Shown here piece after piece: positions 3,865 to 63,458 of a DNA stretch of 64,000 nt. The notes beneath the pieces were generated by a model, which made no database searches, was not told the origin of the DNA, and was given only the letters and a program-made list of their open reading frames with translations. The number at the start of each line of letters is the position of its first letter. Position 1 is the first letter of the stretch. The translations under genes were made by a program, and so were the position numbers. Location: assembly GCA_038087875.1 (NCBI GenBank), contig CM075987.1, forward strand, positions 27,406,001-27,470,000, read 5' to 3'. The stretch comes from Malacoraja senta. Its lineage: Eukaryota.

Positions 3865-4047
3865 GAGGATCTGCGGATGCTGTTTTACACTGAAGATAGA
3901 CACAAAATGCTGGAGTAATTCCAAGTCTCTCACTCCCCTGACTCTCAGTCTGAAGAAGGGTCTCGACCCGAAACGTCACCCGTTCCTTCTCTCCACAGAT
4001 GCTGCCTGTCCCGCTGAGTTACTCCAGCATTTTGTGTCTGTCTGCGG
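3865..4047. mobile_element. Penelope-like pLTR fold-back fragment
   Basis: Minus arm GATAGACACAAAATGCTGGAGTAA followed by a plus arm with hammerhead core and tail ...CCAGCATTTTGTGTCT. Confidence 0.8.
3950..3977 (+). ncRNA. Minimal hammerhead ribozyme core (PLE-type)
   Basis: CTGAAGA-A-GGGT-CTCG-ACCC-GAAA-CG-TC = CUGANGA, stem II, GAAA, palindromic ACGT stem III, GUC triplet. Stem I is only ~2 bp. Confidence 0.7.
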
Positions 4048-4434
4048 TGTTTTATTGTCACGAGGCCTGAAACAGAACCCGGACATTCTTACTCACAAGC
4101 AGCACGACGGACATGGAAACACAGAACTCTGTAATACCCACAGTTAAAATTAATAAACAGATTAGAAACAAACAATAATATTAAAGATAGCGGAGTCAGG
4201 GGATATGGGGAGAAGACAGGAACGGGGTACTGATTGTGGATGATCAGCCATGATCATATTGAATGGCGGTGTTGGCTCGAAGGGCCGAATGGCCTACTCC
4301 TGCACCTATTGTTTATTGTCTATTGTAATATTGCAAAATCAAAAATAATGCCCCACAGGTCTATGTGGTCCGGAGCCTATTTGGAGATTGTAGTGTTTAA
4401 TACATAACATTACTTATAATACATAAAGTGTCAA

Positions 4435-4822
4435 AGTGCTGGAGTAACTCAGCAGGACAGGCAGCATCTCCGGAGAGAAGGAATAGGACGACCCTTCTTC
4501 ATACTGAGAGTCAGGGGAGAGGGAGTCGTAGAGAAATGGAAGGGTAAGTTGTGAAAACAACAGATCAAAGGGGATGTGGATCAATGAAATGTAGAATGGT
4601 TGGTAGACACAAAATGCTGGAGTAACTCAGCAGGACAGGCAGCATCTCTGGAGAGAAGGAATGGGTGACGTTTCGGGTCGAGACTGAAAAAGGGGCTGTA
4701 TACAGACTCGACCCGAAACGTCGGCCATTCCTTCTCTCCACAGATGCTGCCTGTCACGTTGAGTTACTCCAACATTTGGTGTCTATCTTCAATTTAAACC
4801 AGCATCTGCAGTTCCTTCCGAC
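4435..4822. mobile_element. Penelope-like pLTR composite (two minus arms plus an inverted plus arm)
   Basis: Repeated GCTGGAGTAACTCAGCAGGACAGGCAGCATCTC, then inverted arm CTCGACCCGAAACGTC...CAGCATCTGCAGTTCCTTCC. Confidence 0.8.
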
Positions 4823-5130
4823 ACATTGCAATGTGGCGATGTGTCTGCAAGAAATGTCAACAAGTCTAATGGTCGGCTGCCAATGGAAGCTCAGCAGGGT
4901 CAGGGCATCAATGCTCTGCTCAAGGCCATACCAAGCTAGAAGGCAGCCCCAATATTGAGGCATGTCCAGGTCTTTTTCCAGCCAGCTGAATGAGCAATAA
5001 TGTTCCTGTAAAGAACCCTTTTCTGCCAAGTGTATTTCCTGTAACACAGATTTGTCTACACTCGATTCTTGGAGGCTTCCTGTGGATTACAACAAACTTT
5101 CAATGATCCTTAACCTCCTATCTGTGTAGT

Positions 5131-5546
5131 GTAGAGATTCAGCGCGGAAACAGGCCCTTCAGCCCAACGAGTCTGCGCCCACCCTCAATCACCCATACAC
5201 TGGTTCTATCCTACTCACGAGGGACAATTTACAGAAGCCAATTAACCTACAAAACAAGGGATATGAGGAGAAGGCAGGCACGGGTTATTAATTGGGGACG
5301 ATCAGCCATGATCACAATGAATGGCGGTGCTGGCTCGAAGGGCCGAATGGCCTCCTCCTGCACCTATTTTCTATGTTTCTAATTAACCTACAAACTTGTA
5401 TGTCTTTGGAGTGTGGGAGGAAACCGGAGCACCCGGAGAAAACCCACGCAGGTCACGGGGAGAACGTACAAACTCCGTACAGACAGCGCCCGTAGTTGGG
5501 ATTGAACCCGGGTCTCTGGCGCTGTGAGGCAGCAACTCTACCGCTG
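5131..5546 (-). mobile_element. HE1-like SINE interrupted by a CR1 3'-tail insertion (5254-5380)
   Basis: SINE halves are joined across the insertion, which is flanked by duplicated AATTAACCTACAAA (5240-5253 / 5381-5394). Confidence 0.85.
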
Positions 5547-6226
5547 AGCCATTGTTACTTTCAAGATGATCCAGAATGTTTCAAACCTGATGCAGTACCT
5601 TTAATAGTTAACGCACAGGGAAAGGCGCAAGGATCAGACTTGTTGGAACTATGCGGTGGTGGCAGAACCCAGCCTGTCAACATAAAACATCTTGGTGATA
5701 AATGAGAGAGAAATGGGAAATGCAAAGATTAGTTAAGGGCAGACAGTTCCCGATCTAACAACAGGATGTTGTAGTGTAAGGATGCCACAAGTGATGCCTG
5801 CGACTGACATTATCCTCACTCAGACAGCCGACTACAGCGGCCAGAATGACGTTCGATGATGCATTTCGGGAACCCTTCCATGGCCTGTGTTAACGTCAGC
5901 ACAGCGCTAACTCTTGCAGCCTTGTTGTGGAACTTATGAATGAAGAGTGTTGAGCGTGAGTGTCACTGGGCAGGGTCTTGGCCAGGTCTGCTTCACCCCT
6001 CCCCGTGTCTGACGTGATTCAGATACTTACCTTGGATCAGTAACGAAGCTCTTTGTATCCCTCGTGGAACTTGGACTTCTCGCTTCCCCTGCACTCATCT
6101 GCAAGCTCCTTCATATTGACAGAACGCTGAGCTCAGCCACTGCAGCCCAGACTCAGGAATGTCTGTCTGACTTCTGCGCCAAATGCCGGTCGGAACCAAA
6201 CACTTGGTCTTCAAGAGACCACATCG

Positions 6227-6893: not shown

Positions 6894-7410
6894 GAAACGT
6901 CACCTATCCATGTTCTCCACAGATGCTGCTGCCTGACCCGCTGAGTTGCTCCAGCACTCTGTGAAACGTCACATATCCATGTTCTCCACAGATGCTGCCT
7001 GACCCGCTGAGTTACTCGAGCACTCTGTGAAACGTCACCTATCCATGTTCTCCACAGATGCTGCCTGACCCACTGAGTTACTCCAGCACTCTGTGAAACG
7101 TCACCTATCCATGTTCCGGCAGCATCTATGGAGCGAAGGAAATAGGCAACGTTTCGGCCCGAAACCCTTCCGGGTTTCGGCCCGAAATGTTGCCTATTTC
7201 CTTCAGGGTTTCGGCCCGAAAGGTTGCCCATTTCCTTCGCTCCACAGATGCTGCCTGACCCGCTGAGTTACTCCAGCACTCTGTGAAACGTCACCTATCC
7301 ATGTTCTCCACAGATGCTGCTGCCTGACCCGCTGAGTTACTCCAGCACTCTGTGAAACGTCACCTATCCATGTTCTCCACAGATGCTGCTGCCTGACCCG
7401 CTGAGTTACT
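6894..7410 (+). repeat. Tandem array of 66/69-bp PLE pLTR-derived units, interrupted by an inverted PLE insert
   Basis: GAAACGTCAC unit starts at 6894, 6963, 7029, 7095, 7285 and 7354; a different PLE subfamily sits at ~7118-7245. Confidence 0.9.
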
Positions 7411-7509
7411 CCTGGTTGTATCATTTTGTGTATTTACCATCAGTTCCTTGTTTCTACATCTCAGGTCAGTCAATGCCTTGAGTATGAGTATGCTGCGGGT
7501 AATTTTATA

Positions 7510-8403: not shown

Positions 8404-8422
8404 CCCTACACTCAGTATATGT

Positions 8423-9130
<708 letters not shown>

Positions 9131-9429
9131 GGAGCCAACCTTAAGTATGTGCAAGGTGGCTCCGCAAGGCCTCATATCGACAGAATGCTTTGACACCTTG
9201 TTTCCCTGAACCCTGTTGGTCCTGTTGCTCACATTGAGACAGCGGTGTGATGTTTGGAACTAAGAGATATAAACAATTTGAAGTTCTTTGAAGATAAACA
9301 ATAGAGTTCCAATGTGGTTCGAGCAAACTGAAATATCTGCCTCTTGATTGTTCAGCGGTTGTGAACTTGAGGATGGGTGTAAATTCTCGTTATGTTCCCG
9401 TGGCTGACACATATGTACGGCAAACACTT

Positions 9430-9843: not shown

Positions 9844-9871
9844 GACGTTTCGGGTCGAGACCCTTCTTCAG
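9844..9871 (-). ncRNA. Minimal hammerhead ribozyme core
   Basis: Reverse complement is CTGAAGAAGGGTCTCGACCCGAAACGTC, consensus intact. Confidence 0.68.
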
Positions 9872-9996: not shown

Positions 9997-10024
9997 CTGA
10001 AGAAGGGTCTCGACCCGAAACGTC
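9997..10024 (+). ncRNA. Minimal hammerhead ribozyme core
   Basis: CTGAAGAAGGGTCTCGACCCGAAACGTC, consensus intact. Confidence 0.68.
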
Positions 10025-11745: not shown

Positions 11746-11809
11746 GAACCCACCCGTTAGAATGTGGAGGTTTCTGTGGAACCTTCATCAGACTTTGCTG
11801 GATCCTTAA

Positions 11810-11962: not shown

Positions 11963-12985
11963 TTACATCCCAGTTCCTGCACTGACCATTTGCAGCAAGA
12001 TATTCCTTGTTTCTCTTCTCTCTCACACTTCTGATTATGAAGCACAGGGGAATAAAGCAACCTTGCTCTTCTCCCGCTGATGCTGACGAGCGATGGTGCA
12101 GGAAGGAACTGCAGATGCTGGTGTACACCGAAGATAGACCCAGCGTGCTGGAGTAACTCAGCGGGACGGGCAGCATCCCCAGAGAGAAGGAGTGGGTAAT
12201 GTGACCCTTCAGCCTCACTTACCTGAGAACTAGAAGCAGGCTCTCGCCCATCCCTTCTCCCCAGAGCTGCTGCCTGACCCACTGAGTTACTCCAGCATTT
12301 TGGGTCTATCTAGGAGTTACCATGCCTCAACTCAGGAATCTTTACCAGAGGGAACATACTCGGATTGGATTTAAGTTTAGAATGTTAAAGCAAACCATGA
12401 GACACCCTCGTTGTATTGAGATTCTCGCCACTGGAGTCCTGCTGGCTTGATGTTGGTCTTGGGTATAATTAGCCACTTGCCCAGAACACCGTCCATGGCT
12501 AACTGCCCCTTCATCTGCTGGACTGACCTTTGAAGAAAATGATTTCACGGTATTAAACATTTAGCGGCTGGTTTGACACACGGACCGCTTTGTGATTACA
12601 TCAGTTATTTTGAGCGATTTATGCCGGATAATTGCATTCGTCATTTGGACTTGAGGGAAATAATATTTAGCTGGGACAATTTCCCAACCATCCTCAAAGG
12701 CAGATTGAAGCTTGAATAATGGATGTCTTTGTTACAGGGATCGGACTAATCCTTACTGTAATGTGGGCAGGACTGATCTGCGCTTTCATGTGATCGAACT
12801 CTAGGACAAATACCGTTTGACATTTTAATACTACAGTTCCCTTTGATAAACAAAGACTAATTGAATCCGCAAGGTTATATCAATCACATCGTAACTGTGC
12901 CTGTTTTAATTGGAAACTCTGCTGCGCTGAGTACAAAGGATTCAATGTAATATCAACATTCAATAGTGGACAATAGGATCTTTTG

Positions 12986-15305: not shown

Positions 15306-15449
15306 AGGGAGATGAGATGAGATACAGCGTGGAATCAGGCCCTACGGCCCACCGAGTCGGCACCGACCAGCGACCCCCGCACCTTAACACTGTCCCACAC
15401 ACACTAGGGACAATATCACACTTACAGTGCCAGAGACCCGGGCAGAATA

Positions 15450-15760
15450 GATCTTCTTTAGCTGGGAGAAGGTGACAACAAAGCAAACAGAGATAAAATG
15501 TAGTCAGACTGGTGGGGGAACTAGGAAGGGGGAGAGATGGAGAGAGAGAGGGAAAGCAAGGGCTACTTGAAGTTAGCGAAGTCAATGTTCATACCGCTGG
15601 GGTGTAAGCTGCCCAAGCGAAATATGAGGTGTTGTTCCTCCAATTTGCACTGGGCCTCACTCTGACAGTGGAGGAGGCCCAGGACAGAAAGGTCAGCGTG
15701 GGAATGGGGGGGGGGGGGGGGGGGAGGGGGGGGGGGAGTTTAAAGTGTTTAGCAACCTGA
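15450..15760 (-). mobile_element. Penelope-like element, GIY-YIG C-terminal fragment
   Basis: Minus strand translates EAQCKLEEQHLIFRLGSLHPSGMNIDF, a typical PLE ORF end. Confidence 0.82.
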
Positions 15761-16341
15761 AAAATGATCAGGCAGAACTCATTTGGATGCAACATATTTT
15801 GGTGGTGCTGGAGCCTTGAGATGTAAAGTTGGGTGACGTTACTATGCAGGATAGAAAACGCTGACTCTAGTGTTACGCCCCACCTGCTCAGAGTCCATGA
15901 CAGCTACTTGTGTCCAGAGCTAAGTGGGCAGGCCCTGGCAATATGCTCCAGGCATCCATATCTTCAACAAGACGGAAATAATCACGGTAAAATAGATGTA
16001 AGTGTTGAACACAAACCTGTATATCCAATTCATATGGCGGTTTCTATGTATCTCCCTCTCCCTTGAAGGGTCTCGACCCGAAACGTCACCCATTCCTTCT
16101 CTCCAGAGATGCTGCCTGTCCCAGCTGAGTTCAAGAGTCAAGAGAGTTTTATTGTCATGTGTCCCAGATAGGACAATGAAATTCTTGCTTGCTGCAGCAC
16201 AACAGAATATTGTAAACATAAATACAGATCAGTATGTCCATATACCATAGAATATATATATACACGTAAATAAACAGATAAAGTGCAATAGGCTGTTATC
16301 GTTCAGAGTTACTCCAGCATTTTGTGTCTATCTCCGGTTTA

Positions 16342-17410
16342 CATAGATACATAGATACATAGAAAATAGGTGCAGGAGTAGGCCATTCGGCCCTTCGAGC
16401 CTGCACCACCATTCAATATGATCATGGCTGATCATCCAACTCAGTATCCCGTACCTGCCTTCTCTCCATACCCCCTGATCCCTTTAGCCACAAGGGCCAC
16501 ATCTAACTCCCTCTTAAATATAGCCAATGAACTGGCGTCAACTACCCTCTGTGGCAGAGAGTTCCAGAGATTCACCACTCTCTGTGTGAAAAAGTTTTTC
16601 CTCATCTCGGTCTTAAAGGATTTCCCCCTTATCCTTAAGCTGTGACCCCTTGTCCTGGACTTCCCCAACATCGGGAACAATCTTCCTGCATCTAGCCTGT
16701 CCAACCCCATAAGAATTTTGTACGTTTCTATAAGATCCCCTCTCAATCTCCTAAATTCTAACGAGTATAAGCCAAGTCTATCCAGTCTTTCTTCATATGA
16801 AAGTCCTGACATCCCAGGAATCCCAGGAATCAGTCTGGTGAACCTTCTCTGCACTCCCTCTATGGCTATAATGTCCTTCCTCAGATTTGGAGACCAAAAC
16901 TGTACGCAATACTCCAGGTGTGGTCTCACCAAGACCCTGTACAACTGCAGTAGAACCTCCCTGCTCCTATACTCAAATCCTCTTGCTATGAAGGCCAACA
17001 TACCATTCGCTTTCTTCACTGCCTGCTGCACCTGCATGCCTACTTTCAATGACTGGTGTACCATGACACCCAGGTCTCGCTGCACCTCCCCATTTCCTAA
17101 TCGGCCACCATTTAGATAATAGTCTGCCTTCCCGTTTTTGCCACCAAAGTGGATAACCTCACATTTATCCACATTATACTGCATCTGCCAAACATTTGCC
17201 CACTCCCCCAGCCTATCCAAGTCACCTTGCAGTCTCCTAGCATCCTCCTCACAGCTAACACTGCCCCCCAGCTTAGTGTCATCCGCAAACTTGGAGATGT
17301 TGCTTTCAATTCCCTCGTCCAGATCATTAATATAAATTGTAAATAGCTGGGGTCCCAGCACTGAGCCTTGCGGTACCCCACTAGTCACTGCCTGCCATTG
17401 TGAAAAGGAC
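16342..17410 (-). mobile_element. Young CR1 LINE: RT domain plus 3' UTR, cut off by the gap
   Basis: Open frame GVPQGSVLGP...YINDL...KFADDTKLGG...HLEYCVQFWSP; (TATCTATG)n tail; in-frame 9-bp duplication (IPGIPG). Confidence 0.95.
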
Positions 17411-17610
17411 NNNNNNNNNNNNNNNNNNNNNNNNNNNNNNNNNNNNNNNNNNNNNNNNNNNNNNNNNNNNNNNNNNNNNNNNNNNNNNNNNNNNNNNNNN
17501 NNNNNNNNNNNNNNNNNNNNNNNNNNNNNNNNNNNNNNNNNNNNNNNNNNNNNNNNNNNNNNNNNNNNNNNNNNNNNNNNNNNNNNNNNNNNNNNNNNNN
17601 NNNNNNNNNN
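17411..17610. other. Assembly gap (200 N)
   Basis: Run of N; CR1 sequence on the two sides is in opposite orientation. Confidence 1.
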
Positions 17611-20283: not shown

Positions 20284-21042
20284 ATCTGTGCTGAACATGA
20301 AGCCAAGATGATCTAACCTCATCTGCCTGCACATGATCCATATCCCTCCAATCCCTGCATATACACATGTCTATGTAAAACCCTTTTAGACGCCACTATC
20401 GTATCTGCCTCCATCACCACCCGGGCAACATGGTCCGGACACTCACCACTCTCTGTGTAAAAAAACTAGTCCCGTACATTTCTTTTCAATGTTGCCCCTT
20501 TCATCCTAAAGCCTCTGGTTTTTGACATTTCCACCCTAGGTTCTGAATGTCTACTTTATTGAAGCCTCTCGCAGTTTTGCAAGGAATTTGTTGGCGTCAC
20601 TGCAGGCCCGAACGTCACCTCCACCCGTCAATGCTGTTCAAATATTGGAGTAAGATGCATGAAGATATTCGCACTGTCGTCAGGATTCTCAGCCCACCTG
20701 CCCCCGACCCATCATTCTCAGCTGCCTGCGCACTGCTGCCAGGACAGATGTTTCCACAGTTGTGTAAAGCAGGGGGCAAACACTGGAGATATTTCCAAGG
20801 GAATGCTCCTGACGTCACAAGTGATCGTGGAACAGACATCACTGCGTTATTTGTGAACCTCAATGTTTGCACAGATCACGTTTTAATCACGCAAGTGTTC
20901 TGGCCACACAAACACCGCTGCACAAAGCTGTGCTTGCATTCCTGCCAGTTTCCAAGCAACTTTAATTCTTGTCACTTTTTGTGGGTTACAGAATGTGTTG
21001 CAGTCATTTGAGCAGCCGACGCAACTGCGTCACGTACTTTGT

Positions 21043-21360
21043 GTAGGAAGGAACTGCAGATGCTGGTTTACACCGAAGATAAACACAAAGCGCTGGAGTA
21101 ACTCAGCGGGACAGGCAGCATCTCTGGAGAGAAGGAATGGGTGATGTTTCAGGTCGAGACCCTTCTTCAGTCTGAGATTGAGGGGAGAGGGAGACATAGA
21201 GATATGGAAGGGTAAGGTGTGAAAATGAGAGATTAAAGGGGACGAAGTTCAAGGAATACGTAGAATGGAACATTGTGAGCTGAGGGGAAGCTGACAACGA
21301 GGCGTCCAATCCGTGAAATGTAATTAGGAGGACAGTGAAGGATTGGCGGAGGAATGGAGA
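21043..21360 (-). mobile_element. Penelope-like pLTR/3' UTR fragment
   Basis: Full tail GTAGGAAGGAACTGCAGATGCTGG... and a CpG-decayed hammerhead core at ~21143-21170. Confidence 0.8.
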
Positions 21361-23783: not shown

Positions 23784-23871
23784 ATCTACAGCAACAACCA
23801 GCAATCCCATGAGATTCCTCAAGAGCTCTGTGGATCAGCTCTGCTCTCCAGAGTCCTGGAAAAGTTAGACC

Positions 23872-24200
23872 GAAGGTAGACACAAAAAGCTGGAGTAACT
23901 CAGCGAAACAGGCAGCGTCTGTGGAGAGAAGGAATGGCTGACGTTTCTGGTCGAGACCCTTCTTCAGACTGAGAGTCAGGGGAGAGGGAGGGTTGGACCA
24001 CGTTGTGTTGGAGCCTGCGGCGTGGAGGCTGTGGGACTGGTGCTGAGCCGTCTCCCTCTCCCCTGACTCTCAGTCTGAAGAAGGGTCTCGACCGGAAACG
24101 TCACCCATTCCTTCTCTCCACAGATGCTGCCTGTCCCGCTGAGTTACTCCAGCACTTTGTGTCTATCTTCGGTGTAAACCAGCACCTGCAGTTCCTCCCT
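23872..24200. mobile_element. Penelope-like fold-back element
   Basis: Minus arm 23872-23990 and plus arm 24050-24200, each with a singly mutated hammerhead core. Confidence 0.82.
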
Positions 24201-25010
24201 ATATATATAATGAAGTGTTTTTGTTGTCTATTACAGTGTTTACAGAGGGCTGTGCGGACAGTAGCTTCGTGGAGCGCAGCCCAGAGCGATTTAACAAAGC
24301 CAGGGTTAGGAGGAAGGCTGCTGCCCAGAACCCGCCAGTGATAACCTGCATTTGCCCCCCACTGCCCGCGAGTGTGAGGTTCACAAATTGGACTCATGAG
24401 CCATCAGAACTGACCAGAATTGAGACGGCACAACCCGCCATCGTCCTTACCCACGGGCCGCCCCCATCATTGATTCTAATCACATTGTGTTTCTGGATGT
24501 ATGATAGCAGAGAACTCTCGGCTGGATGTCAATGCATTGGTTTGTGTTACTCAGTCTGGGCGGATGGCTGCCAGAGAGAAGGAGAGTATTGGGGGAATGG
24601 GTGCTTGGTGCTGTCCCTGCACACCCCGTGGGACAGTGCAGATGGTGCAGAGTGCTGATGGTGCAAGAGGCTGTGGTGAATAGTCCTCTATTGTGGTCGC
24701 TGTGTCCTGAACATATGCAACAGTGGAGCCTCACAACAGCAGACAGGAATTAACTGTTCTCCTTTACCCTCTCCGTGCTCGATATGTACAGGGACGGACG
24801 CTGAGACAGAAAGACCGTACATACCGTATGAGGCGTAATGAATCAATCCCTTTTCCCCTGTATGTGTGTGCATGGAAGTACTGATACTAACATACATCAA
24901 CCATCCAGAACTGGACTTAATGTTCGAGCCAAAACAACTTCACGTTAGAGCCCAGTTTATGACATTTGTGGGAAGGAACTAACTGCAGATGCTGGTTTAA
25001 ACCGACGATA

Positions 25011-28096: not shown

Positions 28097-28400
28097 ATAG
28101 ACACAAAATGCTGGAGTAACTCAGCGGGACAGGCAACATCTCTGGAGAGAAGGGATGGGTGACGTTTCGGGTCGAGACCCTTCTTCAGGCTGAGAGTCAG
28201 GGTAGAGGAAGTCGAGAGATATGGAAGGGTAAGGTGTGAAAATGACAGATCAAAGCACAGATGTAGAATGCGTCCTTGTTAGCTGTGGGGATGGTGACAA
28301 CCAGACATACAAACAGTAAATAGATTGAGTGAAACTAGTCGGAGAAGGGTGGGGGAGGGACGGAGAGAGAGGGAATGCAAGGGTTACTTGAAGTTAGAGA
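28097..28400 (-). mobile_element. Penelope-like pLTR/3' UTR fragment
   Basis: ATAGACACAAAATGCTGGAGTAACTCAGCGGGAC..., colinear with 21043-21360 and 54935-55275. Confidence 0.82.
28161..28188 (-). ncRNA. Minimal hammerhead ribozyme core
   Basis: Reverse complement CTGAAGAAGGGTCTCGACCCGAAACGTC, intact. Confidence 0.65.
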
Positions 28401-31137: not shown

Positions 31138-31881
31138 TTAGCTTGAGTAGCTCCTCTAATTCTAGTAATACACCTCGTGTCCCCTGGCATGGGAATCATA
31201 GAACAAATGCAGAAGGAGAGCATTCGGCCCATCACATCCGTGCTGGTCAAATGAAGAGCTACCCAACCTAATCCCACCTTCTGGTCACAGGTCTTCATGT
31301 GTTCTCTCCATCTCCACCTTTCTTTCCAGCTCATGGATAGGACAGGTTTGGAGGGATATGGGACCAACGCAGGGCAGGTGGGACTAGTGTAGATGGGGCA
31401 TGTTGGTTGGCGTGGGCAAGTTGGTGCCGAAGGGCCTGTTCCTCGCTGGAAGACTCTATGAGTCTATGACACTGAGATTCAGGTGCATCCACCCACAATG
31501 ATAAAAATGTATTTTCCACCCTTCCACTCTGATTTTTCTACGTCTGACTTTACACGTCTGTCCCCTGGATACTGACCCTTCTGCTGCAGGAAATAAATCC
31601 ATCCAGTCCCCCCTTCCCCCCTCCCACCCATAATATATTACAACTTAGTTATGTCTCCCTTCAGTTTCCTCTGTTCCAAAGAAAATATCTCCAGCCCATG
31701 CACTCTTTGCCCACAGCTAACATTTTCCAGCCCTGACAACATCCTCGTAAATCTCTTCTTGTGTCTCCTTCACCGCACCCAGAGAGAAGTTGCAGTGGGA
31801 TGTACAAGAGCTCAGAGTCAGGAGGAGATGGTTTGCAAGGTTAAATGCCACCAAAAACAAAACGACAAATACATTGAGGAA

Positions 31882-32452
31882 GGTAGACATAAATGCTGGA
31901 GAAACTCAGCGGGTGAGGCAGCATCTATGGAGCGAAGGAAATAGGCAACGTTTCGGGGCCGAAACCCTTCTTCAGACTGATGTGAGGAGGGGGGGGGGGG
32001 GGGGGGGGGTGGGAAGAAGAAAGGAAGAGGTGGAGCCAGTGGGCTGAGGGAGAGCTGAGAAAGTAAGGACTACCTGAAATTGGAGAAGTCAATGTTCATA
32101 CCGCTGGGGTGCAGACTGCCCAAGCGAAATATGAGGTGCTGCTCCTCCAATTTACGGTGGTCCTCACACTGGCCATGAAGGAGGCCGAGGACAGAAAGGT
32201 CGGATTCGGAATGGGAGGGGGAGTTGAAGTGCTGAGCCACCGGAGATCAGGTTGGTTATTGCGAACCGAGCTGAGGTGTTCGGCGAAACGATCGCCAAAC
32301 CTACGCTTGGTCTCACCGATGTACAGCAGCTGATATCTAGGCCCGAAACGTTGCCTATTTCCTTCGCTCCATAGATGCTGCCTCACCCGCTGAGTTTCTC
32401 CAGCATTTCTGTCTACCTTTGATTTTCCAGCATCTGCAGTTCCTTCTTAAAC
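31882..32452 (-). mobile_element. Penelope-like element: 5'-truncated GIY-YIG portion with an inverted pLTR, 14-bp TSD
   Basis: LLYIGETKRRFGDRFAEHL...KLEEQHLIFRLGSLHPSGMN; inverted arm 32340-32452; AATACATTGAGGAA at 31868-31881 and 32453-32466. Confidence 0.92.
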
Positions 32453-32599
32453 AATACATTGAGGAAAATGGGCTGAATTATTCTAAAAACCAACGGAGGA
32501 AATCACTTTAAACTCATGTCCATTCACACCCCAAAGGTTCGGGAACCTTCTTGTCACAAAGTCCAGAGAAGGCCAGGGGAATCCCACTCTCATCATCAT

Positions 32600-37455: not shown

Positions 37456-37465
37456 AAAAAACACA

Positions 37466-37670
37466 TAATGCTGGAGTAACTCAGCATGTCGGGCAGCATC
37501 CCTGGACAACATGGATAGGTGACGTTTTGGGTCGGAACCAGTCTGAAGAAGGGTCTTGACCCAAATCATGACCTAGCCATCTTCTCCAGGGATGCTGCCT
37601 GACCCACTGAGTTACTCCAGCACTCTGTGACTTTCCTCGGTAAACCACTAGCTGCAGTTCCTTCTTTCTA
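37466..37670. mobile_element. Short palindromic PLE-derived element
   Basis: Arms GCTGGAGTAACTCAG... / ...CTGAGTTACTCCAGC meet at a decayed hammerhead (CTGAAGAAGGGTCTTGACCC at ~37543). Confidence 0.8.
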
Positions 37671-39305: not shown

Positions 39306-39404
39306 TTCAGTCTGAAGAAGGGTTTCGGCCCGAAACGTTGCCTATTTCCTTTGCTCCATAGATGCTGCTGCACCCGCTGAGTTTCTCCAGCTTTTTTGTG
39401 TACC
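39306..39404 (+). mobile_element. ~100-bp mini-PLE (subfamily 2) with 13-bp TSD
   Basis: AACCCATTCTTTA at 39268-39280 and 39405-39417; target-derived filler at 39281-39305. Confidence 0.82.
39312..39339 (+). ncRNA. Minimal hammerhead ribozyme core, subfamily 2 (UUCG-capped stem II)
   Basis: CTGAAGA-A-GGGT-TTCG-GCCC-GAAA-CG-TT. Confidence 0.68.
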
Positions 39405-40931: not shown

Positions 40932-40959
40932 GACGTTTCGGGTCAAGACCCTTCTTCAG
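40932..40959 (-). ncRNA. Minimal hammerhead ribozyme core in a PLE pLTR arm (40872-40963)
   Basis: Reverse complement CTGAAGAAGGGTCTTGACCCGAAACGTC; the only change is in loop II. Confidence 0.62.
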
Positions 40960-44541: not shown

Positions 44542-46096
44542 TTAGTCACGCATCAGGCTGAGCAGACTCAACATTACATCCTAAACCTGCATCCAGCACA
44601 GATCTGTCACCAGAAACGGACAGGGACGAGGATACTCTGAATAAACATTACACTATGGAGAGAAAAATGCGAACAGAAACTCAACATTACATCCTAAACT
44701 CAAAGTGATTTAGATATAATTTGCACCTGCAGAGCTGTACGATATTATCGATGCGTGTGATATACTGATCTCTGAATGATTTCATTGTTCTATCTGGGAC
44801 ATATGACAATAAAACACTCTTGACTCTAGCCTCTCCCCCAGGGTTTGCCTCTTGGCCCACATTCACAACTAATTTGTTACTTTATCCCCTCATTTTGCTG
44901 GTATTTATATGTCAGTTTGGAATGGTTGCCTCTTTCCAGCTGGCACTTGCTTCATTTTCTATTACTTTCTGCTCCTAATACTTATGGAATTAGCCTCTAA
45001 TTCTACACGATCTGTCTCCCTGTTGACATTAACCCCATTCATGTGGCTCGGGTTTCCTGCTAATGGTGTTCATCGCTTGACTATCTAACTAACAGAAGAT
45101 AGACACAAAATGCTGGAGTAACTCAGCGGGACAGGCAGCATCTCTGGAGAAAAGGAATGGGTGATGTTTCGGGTCAAGACCCTTCTTCAGACTGAAGGAA
45201 GGTCATGACCCAAAGCATGAACATGATGCCAAGTGCAACTGATCTCATCAGCCCCCACATGATCCATGTCCCTCCAATTCCTGCAATTCCACGTGGCGAT
45301 CTAAATGCCTCTAACACAAATGACACAATTATTGGTGTTTAGCTTCTCATTCTCCTGATGTTCATTCCCCATGAGTCAGAGAGTCGTCAATCGTTGCTTT
45401 GGAGTTTATTGGAGAAAGATTGAGAGATGCAAGCCCTAGAAAGTCATAGTCATGGAGTGATATTGTGTGGAAACAGGCCCTTCAGCCCAACTTGCCCACA
45501 CCTGCCAACATGTCCCATCTGCACTAGTCCCACCTGCCTGCATTTGGCCTATATCCCTCTAAACCTGACCTATCCATGTACCTGTCTAACTGTTGTGATA
45601 GCCCCTGCCTCAACTACCTCCTCCGGCAGCTCGTTCCATACACCCACCACCCTTTGTGTGGTAACGTTACCCCTCAGGTTCCTGTTAAATCATTCCCTCT
45701 TGCTTTATTTGTTCTCACACTCTGGTATTTGGCCATCTTGTTCGTACCTTCTCCAGAATCTGTTCTTCTCAGTGCTGGAACTTGGCTGCACCTCGGCTAA
45801 AATCCACCTCCCATTTTGTTGGTGCTTGAATAGTTTCCCTGGAATTTGTCACTTTCACCTCGTATTTGCCTCTGCCTCTGTTGGCAGTCTCTTCCCTTTG
45901 CTCTTTCACTTGTCTCACTGCATTGTGGCTAACAACTGTGACCAAGTTGCTTATATGAAACACCTTCCCGTTCAGTATAATCGGTGCCAGAATAAATAGT
46001 GTGTGAGCAATGTTACAATGTCTGGAAAAAGTCACTCTAATTCCTTCAGCTAATCAATCTGCTGAGTTGCAGTTCATGGCAAAGCCTGTCCCTGCT

Positions 46097-48282: not shown

Positions 48283-48287
48283 ACACG

Positions 48288-48327
<40 letters not shown>

Positions 48328-48670
48328 CGCACACACACACACACATACACACACACACGCACACACGCACACGCACACGCGCACACACACGCACACACAC
48401 ACACACACACACGCACACATACACACGCGCACACACACACACACACATACACACACACGCACACACATACACACACACACACGCGCACACACACACACAC
48501 GCGCACACACACACACGCACACACACGCACGCACACACACATGCACGCACACACACACACACACGCACACACACATACACACACACGTGCACACACACAC
48601 ACTCACTCACACGCGCACACACACACACACGCACACACACACACACACACACACGCGCACACACACACAA
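48283..48670. repeat. Compound (CA)n/(CG) microsatellite
   Basis: Directly visible. Confidence 0.98.
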
Positions 48671-48775
48671 ACACAGTGATGCCATAGTCAGAGTCATACA
48701 ATGTTTTGACTGACCAATCGTTCCCAAATGCCTTCTGTTCAGTTTAGTCTATTGTCCCGTGTTCCGAGGTACAGT

Positions 48776-50560: not shown

Positions 50561-52819
50561 GCAATAAGCTGCAAGATCCATGCTGATGTAAGGTTAAAGG
50601 CTAAATATCCGACCATTATTTCCTGCTGAGAATGCTATTTCTCTCTCTCTGCCTATAAAATGGAAAACCCGACGTAACTTAAAATGCAACAACCCACTGC
50701 AATAAAACTGCCACGGTCCATTTCCAATGATTCAGAAGCCCAAAAGGTAGACGCAAAGTGCTGGAGTAACTCAGCGGGTCAGGCAGCATCTCTGGAGAAC
50801 ATGGATACATGACGTTTTGGGAGAAGGGTCTCAATCTGAATCGTCACCTATCCATGTTCTCCAGAGATGCTACCTGACCCGCTGAGTTACTCCAGCACTT
50901 TGTGCCTATCGTTGGTATAAACCAGCACCTGCAGTTCCTTGTTATTACTGCAGCGTGAATAGAGAAGTTAGAACTGGATAGATCGACACAAAATGCTGAG
51001 AAGGGTGAAGAAGGGTCTCGAACCGAAACGCCACCTATCCATGTTCTCCAGAGATGCTGCTTTGGGAGGGACTTCAAGGGGAGGATTTTGTCTGGATTAA
51101 TGTGGGGGCCGGACCAACAGTTGCTGGAAAATCGGTTGTGGACCTGTACTAATATTCTCACTATACAAACGATCTTTTTATTTCTTGAACTTTTTATTGT
51201 TTGTTTAGGATATTATCTATTAAGTGCTGTGTTTACAAACCTGTTGTGCTGCTCCAAGTAAGAACCTCATTGTTCCGTTTCGGGACAGACGACAATAAAA
51301 GACAGACGTCTGAAGAAGAGTCTCGACCCGAAACGTCACCTATTCCTTCTCTCCATAGATGCTGCCTGTCCCGCTGAGTTTCCCCAGCATTTATATCTAC
51401 CTTCGGTTTTTCCAGCATCTGCAGTTCCTTCTTAAACATAAAACACTCTTGATCATGATGTCTTGGAAGTGCTGACTCTAAAGGCAGGCAGATCATCAGA
51501 GACCCACACCGCCCCGGCTCCCATTTCATTCCTGCCGTCGGGAAGAAGGTACAGGAGCCTGAAAACTGAGATGTCCAGGTTCAGGAACAGCTACTTCCCT
51601 ACAGCCACCAGGATCTTGCAATAAGGACATTGGGCTTTTTTGTTTGCACCAGTATTGGGATTATTCACTTCCTAATTTCTTTGTTTATTATAGATTATCT
51701 GTGTGTATTATGCGACTTGCCTGTTACACTGCTTTAGTCAGAGGGAGGTGAATCGGTGGAGTCCATTGCCACAGAAGGCTGTAGAGGCCAAGTCAGTGGG
51801 TATTTTTTAAGGCAGAGATAGATTTTTGATTAGTACAGGTGTCGTGGGGTTATGGGGATAGGAGGTCCATCAAGTCCACTCCTCTATTCAATCATGGCTG
51901 ATCTATCTCTCGCTCCTAACCCCATTCTCCTGCCTTCTCCCCATAACCCGTGACACCCATATTAATCGAGAATCTATCTATCGCTGCCTTAAACAACTCC
52001 ATTGACGACCTCCACAGCCTTCTGTGGGAATGGATTCCACAGATTCACCATCCTCTAACTAAAGAAATTCCTCCTCATCTCCTTCCTAAAGGTACGTCCT
52101 TTAATTCTGAGCCTGTGACCTCTAGTCCTAGACTCTCCCACTAGTGGAAACATCCTCTGTCCAAGCTTTTCACTGTTTGGTAAGTTTCAATAAGGTCCCC
52201 CCCCTCGTCCTTCTAAACTCCAGCGGGGACAGGCCCAGAGCCGTCCCAGACGTTGCCAGTGTTGCCTTGAGCTTCTCGGGTTGGAAGTCAGCTGTCGCGG
52301 CCTCATGGAAAAACAACCAGCAACATGCTTCCTGCGGGGTAGTTGGTGAGATGGAGGTTACGACGCAGACTGTCTGGCTGGCTATGTAAGTGGGAGCTGT
52401 TCCCTGGGCAGAGCCCAGCCAACAGAACCATGTGTCTGGCACCGACCCTCCCACCAGCTGCAGCCACACCAGGAAAAGCCGCTCGCTGCGAAGAAAATTA
52501 GTCTCTGCTTTCTTTGAAACATGCCTCTGCTGCTTGTTTTCTGCTTGGAAATGAAAATGAGTTTTGAGAAATGGTGAGCAGTTCTTGATTTATTAGGTAC
52601 GAGGTAGTGAAGTGGCCTACTGCCATTGAACAATCTGCTTGCAGACATGCAACAGGGCTGAGAGCTAATCTCAGGAGATCGCCTTGCCCTGCAGGGAGGG
52701 GGGGGTCCGCTTCCCTCCCCGTATTCCGTGCAGCGAGTTGCTAATTCTTCTGGAGGCATAAGAGACTGCAGATGCTGGAGCCTTCAGCAAAGAAAAACAA
52801 CAAGCTAGACGACTAAAGA

Positions 52820-53127
52820 GCTGGAGTAACTCAGCGGGTCAGGCAGCATCTGTGGAGAACATGGATAGGTGATGTTTCACAGAGTGCTGGAGTAACTCAG
52901 CGGGTCAGGCAGCATCTGTGGAGAACATGGATAGGTCATGTTTCACAGAGTGCTGGAGTAACTTAGCGGGTCAGGCAGCATCTCTGGAGAACATGGATAG
53001 GTGATATTTTGGGTCAGGACCTGCCTTCAGACTTCATCTATCCATGTTCTCCACAGATGCTGCCTGACCCGCTGAGTTACTCCAGCACTCTGTGAAACAT
53101 CACCTATCCATGTTCCCCAGAGATGCT
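52820..53127. repeat. Tandem plus inverted array of 66-bp PLE pLTR units
   Basis: Three minus-strand copies (52820-53010), then two plus-strand copies (53035-53127) of the unit seen at 6894-7410. Confidence 0.87.
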
Positions 53128-54600: not shown

Positions 54601-54934
54601 AGCCACGTTTTGGGTCATAGAGTCACACAGTGATACAGTGTGGAAACAGGCCCTTCAGCCCAACTGGCCCACACCGGCCAACGTGGCCCAGCTACAACAG
54701 TCCATTTTGGGTCGAGACCCTTCTTCAGACTGAGAGGGAAACTAGAGGTAGGAAAAGGTTCAGAACAAATCAGAGCTGGCACCGATGTCCAATGAAAGGT
54801 GGAGCCCACAATGGTCAATTGTTGGCTGTGGAAGAGATGATAATGAAAGGATATATGGAGTCCTCTGACTCAGGCACAGCCGACATCAGAGCTATCATCT
54901 GCCCCTGTGGTTCCAATGCTCTCTTTATCAGAAG

Positions 54935-55275
54935 ATAGACACAAAATGCTGGAGTAACTCAGCGGGTCAGGCAGCATCTCTGGAGAAAAGGATTAGGTGA
55001 CCTTTCGGGTCGAGACCCTTCTTCAGACTGAGAGTTAGGGGAGAGGGAAACTAGAGATATAGATGGTGATACAGAGAGGTATAGAACAAATGAATGAAAG
55101 ATATGCAAAATATTAACGATGATCAAGGAAAGGGCCCAAAGAAAGTAGTACAATGACTGGGGTGGGGGAGGGATGGAGAGAGGGGGATGCAAGGGTTACT
55201 TCATGTTAAAGAAATGAATATTCATACCGCTGGGTTGTAAGCTGCCCAAGCGACATATGAGGTGCTGTTCTTCCT
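54935..55275 (-). mobile_element. Penelope-like 3' fragment (GIY-YIG end plus pLTR)
   Basis: EEQHLICRLGSLQPSGMNI on the minus strand; mutated hammerhead at ~54999-55026. Confidence 0.82.
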
Positions 55276-56364: not shown

Positions 56365-56971
56365 GTCTATAATCATGAGAGGAATAGATCAGGCTAGATG
56401 CACACAGTCTCTTGCCCAGAGTAAGGGAATCGAGGACCAGAGGACCAGAGGTTTAAGGTGAAGGGGAAAAGATTTAATAGGGGTAACTTTTTCACATAAA
56501 GGGTGGTGGGTGTATGGAACAAGCTGCCAGAGGAGGTAGTTGAGGCTGGGACTATCGCAACGTTTAAGAAACAGTTAGACAGGTACATGGATAGGACAGG
56601 TTTAGAGGGATATGAACCAAACGCAGGCAGGTGGGACTAGTGTAGCTGAGACATTGTTGGCCGGTGTGGGCAAGTTGGGTCGAAGGGCCTGTTTCCTCAC
56701 TGTATCACTCTGTGACTAGTGTAGCTGAGACATTGTTGGCCAGTGTGGGCAAGTTGGGCTGAAGGTCCTGTTTCCTCACTGTATCACTCTGTGACTAGTG
56801 TAGCTGGGACATTGTTGGCCGGTGCGGGCAAGTTGGGCTGAAGGTCCTGTTTCCACACTGTATCACTCTGTGACTAGTGTAGCTGGGACATTGTTGGCCA
56901 GTGTGGGCAAGTTGGGCCGAAGGGGCCTGTTTCCACACTGTATCACTCTATGACTCTGTGACTATGACTCT
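56365..56971 (+). mobile_element. CR1 3' fragment with a quadruplicated 3' UTR
   Basis: VWNKLPEEVVEAG coding tail followed by four 79-bp units. Confidence 0.88.
56636..56953 (+). repeat. 4 x 79-bp tandem repeat of the CR1 3' UTR
   Basis: ACTAGTGTAGCTG unit starts at 56636, 56715, 56794 and 56873. Confidence 0.93.
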
Positions 56972-57584
56972 ATGCATGGAGTGTGCTCAATTCTGCGTGG
57001 TCCCACACCCATACCCCCACCAACAGCATTGGACTTGGCGCAGTGACAAAGACCACTGGGTCCGCAGGAACCCCAGGCACGCACTCATCAGCGTTGAGCC
57101 CTGGTGGCGTTGCATTGATTCAAATTATCTTTCAAACAGTATTTGTCAGCGGGAACATATTTACAAACTTGACGAACCAAACAGCGAAACAAAATACATT
57201 CCCAGCGAGCCTGAGAACAATCTGTTCCAAAGATATGACGAGGAACTTCTCTTGTACCAAAGAGCTGACTATATCTGTGCTGAACACGATGCCAATTTAA
57301 CTGTCTGCACAAGCCCCATGTCCCATTATACCCACCTGTTGATGTCTGTGTAAGTGCCTCAATCATTGCTCTGCCTGCTCCCATCACCTCCCCTCTCAGA
57401 GGGTTCCAGGAACCTACAATCCTATCTCGTACATCTCCTTTAAACTGCTGAAGAATGTAGAAACAAAGAACTGTGGGTGCTAGCTGTTACACAAAAGGAC
57501 ACCAAGAGCTGGAGCAAGTCGACAGGTCAGGCAGCACCTCTGGAGATCACGGACAGGTGACATTTCAGGCCGTTCATAATCTTC

Positions 57585-57840
57585 ACCACTAACTTCCACC
57601 CTGCCCTCACATTCACCAGGACCATCTCTTACACCTCTCTCCCCTTTCTTGATCCATCTAAATCCATTACAGCAGACAGGCTATAGGCTGACGTCTATTA
57701 AATACATACTAACTCCCACAGTTATCTGGACTACACTTCCTCCCACCCTGCCTCTGGCAAAGATGCTATTCCTTATTCTCAATTCCTCCGTCTCCGTGCA
57801 CCAGCTCCAAGATGAGACTTTCTATTCAAGGACATTCATA
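57585..57840 (+). mobile_element. Penelope-like RT/thumb fragment (decayed)
   Basis: NFHPALTFT...SLPFLD and TNSHSYLDYTSSHPASGKDAIPYSQFLRLR are PLE RT C-terminal motifs. Confidence 0.8.
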
Positions 57841-58799: not shown

Positions 58800-59717
<918 letters not shown>

Positions 59718-59784
59718 TTAGAAAGAGAGTTTGAGGGAGAGAGTGAGAGAGAGGAGAGAGAGAGAGAAAGAGAAAAGGCATGAT

Positions 59785-61721: not shown

Positions 61722-62420
61722 AGTTCAGTTTAGTTTATTGTCACGTGTACCGAGGTACAGTGAAAAGCTTTTGCAGCGTGCTAACCAGTCAGCGGAAAGA
61801 CAATACATGATTACCAGCAAGCCAGCCACAGTGTACAGATACAAGATAAAGGGCATAACATTTAGTGTAAAATAAAGTCCAGTAAAGATTGATTAAAGAT
61901 AGTCCAAGTGTCACCAATGAGGTGGCTAGTACCTCAGGACTGCTCTCTAGTTGGTGAGAGAATGGTTCAGTTGCCAGCTGGGAAGAAACTGCCCCTGAAT
62001 CTGAAGGTGTGCGTTTTCACACTTCTGCACCTTTTGCCTGATGGGAGAGGGGAGAAGAGGGAGTGGCCAGGGTGCGACTCGTCCTTGATTATGCTGCTGG
62101 CCTTGCCGAGGCAGCGTGAGGTGTAGATGGAGTCAATGGCAGGGAGGTTGGTTTGTGTGATGGTCTGGGCTGCGTCCACAATTCGCTGCAATTTCTTGTG
62201 GTCTTGGATGGAGCTGTTCCCAAACCATGCTTTGATGCATCCTGATAAAATGCTTTCTGCAGCGCATCTGTAGAAGTTGGTGAGAGTTGTTGGGGACATG
62301 CCGAACTTCCTAAACCTTGTAAGAAAGTAGAGGCGTTGGTGTGCATTCTTGGCCGTTGCTTGGATATGGGTGGTCCAGGAGAAGTTGCTGGAGATATTTA
62401 CTCCTAGGAACTTGAAGCTC
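61722..62420 (-). mobile_element. Rex1/Babar LINE: RT C-terminus plus 3' UTR
   Basis: TNFYRCAAESILSGCIKAWFGN...LQRIVDAAQTIT...SHPGHSLFSPLPSGKR...SFFP. Confidence 0.92.
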
Positions 62421-63049
62421 CTTAAACCTAAACTTGAACTTAGAGTTCTCCAGAGATGCTGCCTGACCTGCTAAATTACTCCTAAGTGGCCCACAGGCAG
62501 AGAGGAGCGTGGTGAAACATCACCAATTGTCTGGTAGAATCCCAATGTCAGATATCCCTGAGGTTAAGGCCACAGCTATTGGATTCTGAGAGAGAGGGAA
62601 GCTCACCGTCTGAAACCACGGATCAGCTGTCTGAAGGGGCTTTTAATTCCTTAAAACATCTTTTGCTCCCAAATGGCTGGCGTGTGAGAGATTTAGTGTC
62701 GAGCTGGTTTTAATGATGTTCTGTCTGGGACACGCTATGCAAACAAAGTGAATGCTGAGTTATGAATCCTGAATGAAAAGTAGAAAGGTTCCAACAGACA
62801 TTAATTTTAAAGGGCTTTGGGGAAATATAAATTACAGATAAATTACAGCAGGAAATGTCTATGGACAGACTATATAGTGACCTAAGATAGACACAAAATG
62901 CTGGAGTAACTCAGCGGGACAGACAGCATCACTGGAGACATGGAATGGGTGACGTTCTTCAGAAGAAGGGTCTCGACCTGAAACGTTCTCCCGTTCCTTC
63001 TCTCCAGAGACGTTGCCTGTCCCGCTGAGTTACTCCAGCATTTTGGAGG

Positions 63050-63290
63050 GACCCAATACACTAGCACTATCCTAGACACTAGGGACAATTTACAATATTT
63101 ACCAAAGCCAATTAACATACAAACCTGTACGTCTTTGGAATGTGGGAGGAAATTGGAACACCCGGAGAAATCCCACGCAGGTCACGGGGAGAACGTGCAA
63201 ATTCCGATCAGACAGCACCCGTGGTCAGGATCGAACTGGGGTCTCTGGCGCTGTAAGGCAGCAACTCTACCGCTGCGCCATCGTGCCGCC
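63050..63290 (-). mobile_element. HE1-like V-SINE
   Basis: Head and V-domain. Confidence 0.85.
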
Positions 63291-63332
63291 CTCGAGGTCG
63301 AAGGGGCCATCTTAGGCAAGACACTAATACGT

Positions 63333-63458
63333 CTGAAGAAGGGGCTCAACCCGAAACGTCACCCGTTCCTTCTCTCCAGAGATGCTGCCTGTCCCGCTGA
63401 GTCACTCCAGCATTTTGTGTCTACTTTCGATTTAAACCAGCATCTGCAGTTCCTTCCT
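63333..63458 (+). mobile_element. 126-bp mini-PLE starting at the hammerhead core, 12-bp TSD
   Basis: ACACTAATACGT at 63321-63332 and 63459-63470; the insert begins CTGAAGAAGGGGCTCAACCCGAAACGTC. Confidence 0.87.

Follow-up and report, generated by a model that had tools for sequence, protein, structure and literature searches.

Minimal hammerhead motifs dispersed in the genome of a skate-like fish as probable remnants of Penelope-like element ends

Minimal type I hammerhead ribozymes (min-HHRs) are an already known kind of motif, reported in 2014 to be massive and dispersed in animal genomes (PMC4209133), with thousands per genome in coelacanth and Xenopus. They are mostly single dispersed motifs from truncated Penelope-like elements (PLEs), opposite-strand pairs lie 100-700 bp apart, GUU triplets are common in the published alignment and a helix I of 2 bp has been published for Drosophila virilis, Culex and Oikopleura (PMC4209133). 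In the 64-kb window, i.e. the whole stretch of DNA analysed here, the motifs are likewise mostly single and dispersed, with opposite-strand pairs at such distances. The sequence-only reading of this DNA as dense in minimal type I hammerheads of PLE pLTRs, tied to RT/GIY-YIG, fits the published consensus, which equals the window motif base for base, the common items being CUGANGA-H, G10.1-C11.1, GAAA, palindromic 15.2/16.2 and NUH. With a helix I of 2 bp and a helix II of 4 bp, the stems lie towards the lower limit of the published range and come close to the minimum size of natural hammerheads, and cleavage by so small a motif would be of some interest. Cartilaginous fish were not found in the PMC4209133 supplement file that was searched, and what is new here is a lineage that we did not find in print, together with an unusually dense and clean record of PLE insertion products.

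Insertions of EN+ PLEs (PMC3846280; PMC8557442) show 5' truncation, partial tandems, adjacent inverted pLTRs, head-to-head junctions, a 30-40 bp tail at one end, target duplications and solo pLTRs, a list that the window shares, although most of its copies measure only 60-130 bp and no complete element is present. Poseidon PAc from Anolis carolinensis (PMC11167929) has its HHR about 85-100 nt upstream of the 3' end, as in the window, and both have two end classes and no ends at the HHR cut site. However, PAc belongs to a different clade and its ORF starts inside stem II, where there is no start codon in the window. It uses uncut RNA as substrate and its HHR cleaves only with its own protein. 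Non-LTR retrozymes (PMC7229834; bioRxiv 10.64898/2026.07.22.740005) are also non-coding and pLTR-related with a type I HHR, and like the window copies would require a PLE protein if mobile. Their HHR is canonical and recurs in every tandem unit, and they give rise to circular RNAs, whereas the window has no such array and its HHR is minimal, in copies that grade into coding PLE ends.

The window motif consists of CUGANGA, one extra base, a stem II closed by G10.1-C11.1, and GAAA. At the six sites previously described as intact the 28-nt core was indeed found, exactly so in five, but the label holds less well for stem I, which has 2 bp in only four of the six, the structure descriptor giving 1 bp at 9997 and 0 bp at 28161. 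Allowing up to 3 mismatches, the 28-nt core has 17 matches in the window and none in 100 shuffles. A minimal type I hammerhead descriptor returned 11 matches (mean 0.36 and maximum 2 in 100 dinucleotide shuffles), among them three with a broken palindrome that were missing from the earlier list (21170-, 45190-, 55026-), while a stricter descriptor (stem II of at least 4 bp plus palindromic helix III) returned 6, against 0.03 in shuffles. In 8 of the 11 helix I reaches 2 bp, which is its maximum, and 8 of the 11 have ACGU together with GUC or GUU, i.e. a palindromic 15.1-16.1 without helix III loop. A profile finds 60 pieces (4,526 bp, 7.1% of the window) and none on the reversed window; a longer profile finds 63 pieces in 30 clusters across the 64 kb. 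All 11 core bases are kept in 15 of the 27 core-spanning pieces, and core plus stem II in 10, and a core-bearing piece occurs locally about every 2.4 kb (27 in 64 kb). An Rfam search of the window gave zero hammerhead matches at E≤1; eight weak microRNA/snoRNA matches below the gathering score were due to inverted repeats and microsatellites.

The four PLE coding fragments that had been recognized at 15.6, 32.2, 55.2 and 57.7 kb are all real. A C-terminus fragment matches skate, ray and shark proteins with 84% identity (E 4e-21), the RT piece does so with ~64% (best E 3e-22), and the window fragments align in order along P0019, a protein with RVT_1 and GIY-YIG matches. The window holds RT/GIY-YIG fragments only, its GIY-YIG piece scoring below the Pfam cut-off (E 0.025), and no full-length PLE occurs within the 64 kb. 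Three HHR copies are contiguous with the ORF end (31975-, 55026-, 28188-) and one pLTR adjoins the RT fragment directly (57458..57830). The resulting order on the sense strand is RT, GIY-YIG, stop, a pyrimidine-rich UTR of 100-200 nt, HHR, ~60 nt and an optional tail of 30-40 nt. The closest proteins resemble Neptune in their Zn-finger-like linker and C-terminal GIY-YIG; the CX2-5CxxC linker between RT and EN, a Neptune feature also found in Nematis, belongs to a part absent from the window and is seen in relatives that share 57-81% identity with the window fragments. The Neptune-like assignment comes from this linker in relatives rather than from a tree. The copies derive from one element end by 5' truncation and form a nested series, from the coding frame down to a partial tail. 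Judged from sequence, the motifs are most probably (a probability of about 0.85) the minimal type I hammerhead of the pLTR of an EN+ Neptune-like PLE of a skate-like fish, with the ~60 pieces representing dead, 5'-truncated insertions.

Table 1. Hammerhead cores, PLE pieces and arrays in the 64-kb window
Feature	Position	Strand	Details
min-HHR core, majority subfamily (C3 to C17)	3950..3977	+	Descriptor and core match; 2-bp stem I, 4-bp stem II, ACGU palindrome
min-HHR core, intact	9844..9871	-	Descriptor and core match
min-HHR core, arm of inverted pair	9997..10024	+	1-bp stem I
PLE end: last ORF codons, stop, whole 3' UTR, HHR core, short 3' end	28097..28398	-	3' UTR ~200 nt, pyrimidine-rich; HHR 28161-28188, stem I lost
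min-HHR core, subfamily B	39312..39339	+	U-G pair in stem II, GUU triplet
min-HHR core	40932..40959	-	One loop-2 change
Composite PLE insertion	31868..32466		14-bp target-site duplication (31868-31881 / 32453-32466); pLTR (-, short end, HHR 31947-31975), 3' UTR, GIY-YIG C-terminal fragment (-), inverted partial pLTR (+, long end with tail)
GIY-YIG endonuclease fragment up to ORF stop	32073..32338	-	One frameshift near 32243
Solo ~130-bp unit, HHR + tail (63331-63461)	63321..63470	+	12-bp target-site duplication; start 0-2 nt upstream of C3
Solo unit	51308..51435	+	Ends -2 to +127, as in 63331-63461; stem II damaged; target duplication absent from the flanks checked
PLE end: ORF C-terminus (55199-55273), 3' UTR, HHR, short end	54917..55273	-	HHR core 54999-55026 (-), palindrome broken
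ORF C-terminus (15566-15706) + 3' UTR start	15436..15706	-	HHR absent
Partial pLTR (-, long end, 57458-57572) head-to-head with PLE RT fragment (+, 57573-57800)	57458..57830		RT fragment with two stops
Two direct pLTRs (-) + inverted pLTR (+) with tail	4425..4821		Damaged cores; textbook PLE partial-tandem arrangement
Head-to-head pLTR pair, short end on -, long end on +	23865..24202		11 core bases kept in both cores; stem II damaged
Head-to-head pair, short/long ends	37456..37670		
Head-to-head pair, short/long ends	50744..50946		
Head-to-head pair, long/short ends	12097..12317		Cores deleted
Head-to-head pair, long/short ends	3860..4050		Contains 3950 core
Head-to-head pair, long/short ends	985..1096		Without CUGANGA
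Head-to-head pair, both short ends	62879..63045		Exception to one-tail rule
3' UTR + HHR (21143-21170) + long end	21042..21300	-	
pLTR (-) with HHR (45163-45190) + short fold-back arm	45091..45220		Centre of arm just upstream of C3
Tandem array, 66-bp pLTR-derived unit	6894..7412	+	Unit starts at G12; without CUGANGA
Second tandem array, 66-bp unit as at 6894..7412	52820..53009	-	

Measured from C3, 29 of the 63 pieces have their 3' end between +84 and +102 and 19 between +125 and +129 (the latter class lying near the profile end, which sharpens it), in agreement with a 30-40 bp PLE tail and two RT start sites. Of the 33 pairs of neighbours, the head-to-head orientation accounts for 14 and the tail-to-tail one for 3, and the tail is on one arm only in 9 of the 11 scorable pairs (p=0.03). 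At the other extremity, 5' ends form a continuum from ORF to mid-tail, with 42 of 52 pieces failing to extend 20 nt upstream of C3, as a separate short element would also give. The upstream edge of the HHR (-6 to +2) accounts for 15 of 43 5' ends (p=2e-6 vs uniform), several of them fold-back junctions, and none of the 43 scored lies at the HHR cut site, where 2.1 are expected; the template was therefore probably uncut RNA. Two solo copies have near-identical ends (-2 to +127/128). Target duplications are convincing in 2 of 136 tested units (14 bp and 12 bp), in a count that leaves aside 12 element-internal repeats and 5 matches of 8-9 bp at chance level (3.3% of random pairs) among the 19 units with flanking matches of at least 8 bp. 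The two 3'-end classes, one-armed tails and lack of cut-site ends fit the 2024 in vitro model (PMC11167929), and all three lend themselves to a count across the whole of any skate assembly.

The mechanism that we infer is modelled on in vitro work with the Poseidon element of Anolis, which is of a different clade from Neptune. The element protein would nick DNA and then prime reverse transcription within its own RNA, either about 60-75 nt or about 100 nt 3' of the HHR cut site, hence two 3'-end classes. Most copying would reach no further than ~130 nt, ending at the HHR or only a little way into it, or else would fold back or restart on the opposite strand, which would leave solo stumps as well as head-to-head pairs in which a single arm has the tail. 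The template is probably not cut at the ribozyme site. Source elements that are active probably keep the HHR as a weak, dimer- or protein-dependent ribozyme. Once inserted, it undergoes neutral decay, much as its flanks do; at non-CpG sites post-insertion change affects 12/291 core and 127/2037 tail positions (p=0.19).

A separate, retrozyme-like non-coding class, as had been proposed for these copies, is not borne out: they pass by degrees into coding PLE ends, have the inverted pLTR plus tail that is usual in PLE insertions, and form no core-bearing tandem array in the window. Animal retrozymes are defined by tandem units (PMC7229834; bioRxiv 10.64898/2026.07.22.740005), with minimal motifs also admitted (bioRxiv 10.64898/2026.07.22.740005), and no array in the window repeats a complete HHR in two or more units in a row. 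Both arrays (6894-7412, 52820-53009) are made of 66-bp units without CUGANGA, that at 6894..7412 being a minisatellite, not a ribozyme array; an origin from cleavage-made circles was ruled out for these arrays, given that their unit begins 8 nt 5' of the cut site. The two cases of same-strand neighbours less than 1 kb apart (51005/51308, 62960/63331) have unrelated sequence between them and a damaged core each. Helix I is nowhere longer than 2 bp in the window, where a canonical type I HHR would have ~6 bp and a loop 1-loop 2 contact.

The two subfamilies, said to keep stem II pairing with different sequence, do keep it, but the difference is one-sided only (U-A to U-G) and hence not covariation. 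Among 17 copies, neither stem I nor stem II shows a change on both sides, and the covariation score is at shuffle level (235/500 shuffles as high), the subfamilies being too close. Between four subfamily consensuses, the core differs less than the flank, as predicted, but not significantly so (0 of 11 core vs 24 of 98 tail positions, p=0.056); the three differences within the HHR all preserve pairing or the NUH triplet. When 16 contexts were folded, the hammerhead-compatible monomer exceeded the minimum by 2.2-7.8 kcal/mol, and P(stem II) was 0.001-0.11 and P(stem I) below 0.01 in 16/16, since the core, rich in purines, pairs with a pyrimidine run downstream of it. The consensus fold of 17 copies contained a 4-bp tail hairpin only, with no hammerhead. 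The core pattern had 0 matches in the viral contigs searched and occurs at at least 121 loci in metagenome contigs, none of which among the matches listed is homologous to the tail of the window element, so that these loci supply no covariation data for this family.

A chance likeness, in which a repeat fortuitously contains CUGANGA...GAAA, could draw on the lack of Rfam matches and on the non-independence of the copies, by which the shuffle test shows a repeat rather than a function. It is nevertheless extremely improbable and effectively refuted by position and consensus match, the motif being placed as PLE hammerheads are, 3' of the ORF stop and 5' of the tail, with all consensus items fitting, including the extra base after A9, G10.1-C11.1 and the palindromic 15.2/16.2. 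It is a possible, if doubtful, alternative that the motif is vestigial, a hammerhead descendant that does not cleave in this lineage and is kept, or simply inherited, as a signal for promoter function, splicing or protein binding. Such a reading bears on activity alone and does not conflict with an origin by PLE insertion. The 2-bp stem I (U-G plus G-C in subfamily B), the unfavourable monomer folding in 16/16 contexts, the absence of compensatory changes and of 5' ends at the cut site, and the failure of frog retrozyme dimers to cleave in vitro (8/9) are all consistent with it. However, since the Anolis HHR cleaves only with protein, poor monomer folding is to be expected, and both the core-versus-tail contrast and the three pairing- or NUH-preserving differences point the other way. 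Unrelated loci linked to PLEs have this core too, with stems of their own (77 distinct contexts), G is found at position 17 in 0/77 of them although the pattern leaves this position free, and the terminal residues of a shark gene model match a frame-0 reading of the core.

As to origin, the copies could instead belong to a self-standing, SINE- or retrozyme-like non-autonomous element, with a ~130-nt HHR+tail unit transcribed, perhaps from the initiator-like TCAGT immediately 5' of the core, and copied in trans by a PLE protein. A solo unit starting at the core within a 12-bp target duplication, a second copy with the same ends and the peak of 5' ends at -6 to +2 suggest as much, trans mobilization of other sequence is possible for pLTRs, and a 2026 preprint traces animal retrozymes and monomers to pLTRs (bioRxiv 10.64898/2026.07.22.740005). 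This account is nevertheless quite unlikely, because no core-bearing tandem unit exists in the window, every tail subfamily distinguished has a coding-linked member, 5' ends are continuous from ORF to mid-tail, several ends in the peak are fold-back junctions, and the Anolis template needs about 55-60 nt past the priming site, which tail-ending copies lack. In a related and likewise unlikely scenario, the ~130-nt unit would be discrete by virtue of an RNA start at TCAGT, three bases before C3, where tail-primed reverse transcription would run off; some copies would be re-transcribed and re-copied as a SINE-like family, moving uncut, with the core in an alternative helix until protein binds. 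Such a start would account for a helix I of only 2 bp and, if this were true, skate genomes would be a very large natural record for testing the purpose of PLE hammerheads.

A coding role for the HHR+tail region was rejected, one frame being open in the majority subfamily but interrupted by a stop in the A2 consensus. A GT at the ORF stop and a pyrimidine tract plus CAG just upstream of the core, as in D. virilis, would suit an intron; of 38 joints 15 were listed, and these did not include the expected one, the adjacent stretch being skipped as repeat.

The hammerhead ribozyme (HHR) motifs in the window are best read, with a probability of roughly 0.85, as the ends of a Neptune-like Penelope-like element (PLE) that carry the minimal type I form and were amplified as short dead insertions, a known phenomenon that the sequence-only reading had spotted correctly. 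On the sense strand, an ORF and its stop codon are followed by a pyrimidine-rich UTR of ~100-200 nt, the HHR, ~60 nt and an optional tail, and the HHR is continuous with the ORF end in three copies, at 31975(-), 55026(-) and 28188(-). The 3' ends of the 63 pieces of pseudo-LTR (pLTR), counted from C3, the first base of the 28-nt HHR core, fall into two main classes, at +84 to +102 (29 pieces) and +125 to +129 (19 pieces), with 11 cut earlier and four in between; the longer class lies close to the end of the profile used, yet flanks beyond that point vary among copies. The gap between the classes corresponds to the 30-40 bp tail described for PLEs (PMC8557442, PMC3846280). A separate non-autonomous family is an unlikely reading, and when 50 of the 63 pieces were sorted by four diagnostic strings of our own into groups of 19, 19, 7 and 5, every group had at least one coding-linked member.

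The PLE coding fragments initially recognized from the sequence alone are genuine (see table). A 58-residue C-terminal piece has 18 protein matches, the best four from skates (75-84% identity), and longer shark and ray relatives, to which the window fragments align, combine RT, CxxxxCxxC linker and GIY-YIG within a single frame, the layout reported for Neptune and Nematis PLEs (PMC8557442). The element is called Neptune-like on the strength of the linker in these relatives, and the protein matches make a skate-like fish the probable host. Contigs matching it number 1,944 to 88,005 in four runs of four organisms, which indicates presence and many variants rather than copy number. In one shark gene model, the terminal residues match a frame-0 reading of the HHR core, a hint that the motif may be old in the group. 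Five skate and ray gene models (P0001-P0004 and P0022) finish in PLE endonuclease sequence yet bear host-gene names (neuromedin-U receptor 1, receptor-transporting protein 3-like, divergent kinase), reflecting either exonisation or an annotation artefact. By title or abstract start, no skate, shark or elasmobranch report of the motif was found, most subscription papers and Repbase lying outside the search.

Features located in the window
Feature	Position	Strand	Remark
GIY-YIG domain C-terminus	15.6, 32.2, 55.2 kb		PLE
RT fragment	57.7 kb		PLE
Partial pLTR	57458-57572	-	head-to-head against RT fragment, adjoining
pLTR + UTR + GIY-YIG piece + inverted pLTR with tail	31879-32451		inside 14-bp duplication
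Solo unit	63331-63461		inside 12-bp duplication
Long LINE fragment	25001-27747	+	AP-endonuclease and RT domains, three open stretches
LINE RT fragment	16444-17409	-	runs into 200-N assembly gap 17411-17610
Pfam PF09004 (ALKBH8_N) match	61970-62470	-	E 1e-9
Long (TG)n/(AC)n runs, 16-bp minisatellite, 79-bp tandem of repeat end	8420-9131, 48283-48675, 48922-49434, 56635-56955

The 28-nt motif was recovered where it had first been seen, with 17 sites at ≤3 mismatches versus none in 100 shuffles, and a structure descriptor (CUGANGA, 0-1 extra base, stem II, GAAA, 0-8 nt, UH) found 11 matches versus 0.36 per shuffle; because the copies form one repeat family, these tests demonstrate a repeat, not function. 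A pLTR profile made from 12 hand-picked copies detected 60 pieces, which cover 7.1% of the window, but nothing once the sequence was reversed; a longer profile gave the 63 pieces. All 11 core bases are intact in 15 of 27 core-spanning pieces, and core plus stem II in 10, and a 2-bp stem I, 4-bp stem II and the palindrome occur together at four sites only (3950+, 9871-, 39312+ and 40959-).

Between the four group consensuses, 0/11 core versus 24/98 tail positions differ, which is in the direction expected of a conserved core but falls short of significance (one-sided p=0.056). Three group differences lie inside the 28 nt (a loop base, stem II U-A to U-G, and GUC to GUU), and position 1.1, directly after the cut site, is also altered between groups, giving a U-G pair. 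Since stem II changes on one side only, the earlier proposal that subfamilies keep its pairing with different sequence reduces to a single wobble change; across 17 aligned copies neither stem I nor stem II shows a both-sided change, and shuffles reach a similar covariation score. Post-insertion non-CpG mismatches amount to 4.1% in the core versus 6.2% in the tail (42 copies, with the eight array units excluded; p=0.19), and the genomic copies hence show no detectable constraint and decay neutrally after insertion. When monomers are folded, the downstream pyrimidine run pairs with the purine-rich core, the hammerhead-compatible fold is dearer by 2.2-7.8 kcal/mol and stem II has a probability of 0.001-0.11; three stem II pairs reach a median of 0.58 across 89 unrelated metagenome contexts, by a measure not quite the same. 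Among the metagenome matches listed, PLE coding sequence lies near 21 of 121 loci, helix I is mostly 2-4 bp, and position 17, left free by the search pattern, is C, U or A in 77/77 distinct contexts; these loci show the core to be widespread among PLEs. Two of them on one contig, L001 and L002, are opposite-strand cores accompanied by PLE RT and EN sequence, and another, L115, has two cores on the same strand.

The suggestion of a retrozyme-like class did not hold within the window. What defines an animal retrozyme is the tandem repetition of units that each contain a type I HHR (bioRxiv 10.64898/2026.07.22.740005; PMC7229834). The two pLTR-derived tandem arrays have 66-bp units that start at G12 and lack CUGANGA, and of nine core-spanning neighbour pairs ≤1 kb apart, seven are opposite-strand and two same-strand with unrelated sequence between; the defining feature of retrozymes is therefore absent from the window. 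Retrozymes averaging 363 bp have been described in one chondrichthyan, and the supplements of that study may hold related families (bioRxiv 10.64898/2026.07.22.740005).

Where insertions begin was assessed on 43 pieces with a 5' end between -30 and +70, omitting the eight array units as well as any piece whose end falls before +45. Fifteen start at -6 to +2 (p=2e-6 versus uniform) and none at the cut site (2.1 expected), although ends near -5 may partly be profile edges because the upstream profile reflects one subfamily, and several ends are fold-back junctions at the near-palindrome around C3. Two readings of this pile-up remain. It might mark transcription start at a putative initiator-like TCAGT before the core, or else copying might stall and fold back where the HHR is structured, in the way that self-priming at palindromes has been proposed for rotifer PLEs (PMC3846280). 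For a Poseidon element of Anolis, two internal reverse-transcription start sites are reported to define the tail, uncut RNA to be the main substrate and the HHR to cleave only on adding protein (PMC11167929). The window fits this model, under which priming would occur at internal sites inside the element RNA, uncut RNA would be the template and the ribozyme might still be active in the element.

Neighbours no more than 420 bp apart form 33 pairs: 14 head-to-head, three tail-to-tail and 16 direct. The tail is on one arm only in 9/11 head-to-head pairs with both ends intact (p=0.03), three more with a truncated arm being excluded. Only two of 136 units tested have convincing target duplications (see table), ≥10 bp being reached by 1.8% of random pairs. 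One pair of inverted arms encloses a 19-nt spacer (12214-12232) found nowhere else in the window; its - strand includes a perfect splice-donor 9-mer, and the spacer may have been captured from the host. Other repeats have since inserted into pLTR copies at 16131-16306 and 54603-54713 and split them, in one case within the HHR and with a short duplication.

Three UTRs (31976-32073, 55027-55199 and 28189-28386, all -) have GT as their first bases, at the stop codon of the ORF, and finish in a pyrimidine tract and a CAG that stops one base short of the core. These candidate-intron borders resemble those of the D. virilis Penelope intron, which ends at helix I (PMC4209133). Contigs did not confirm splicing there, the expected joint being absent from the 15 of 38 joints listed. 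An 8-bp helix is possible between mid-pLTR and tail (~63377-63445(+) and all long-end copies) and is therefore foldable in long-end copies only; 90-92% of its cells are paired, with a single both-sided change, and this does not exceed shuffles.

The open frames scanned yielded no host gene. The PF09004 match belongs to a family that often matches LINE C-termini. Once the pLTR is masked, another 39% of the window consists of internally repeated sequence, in families of 20-30 copies.
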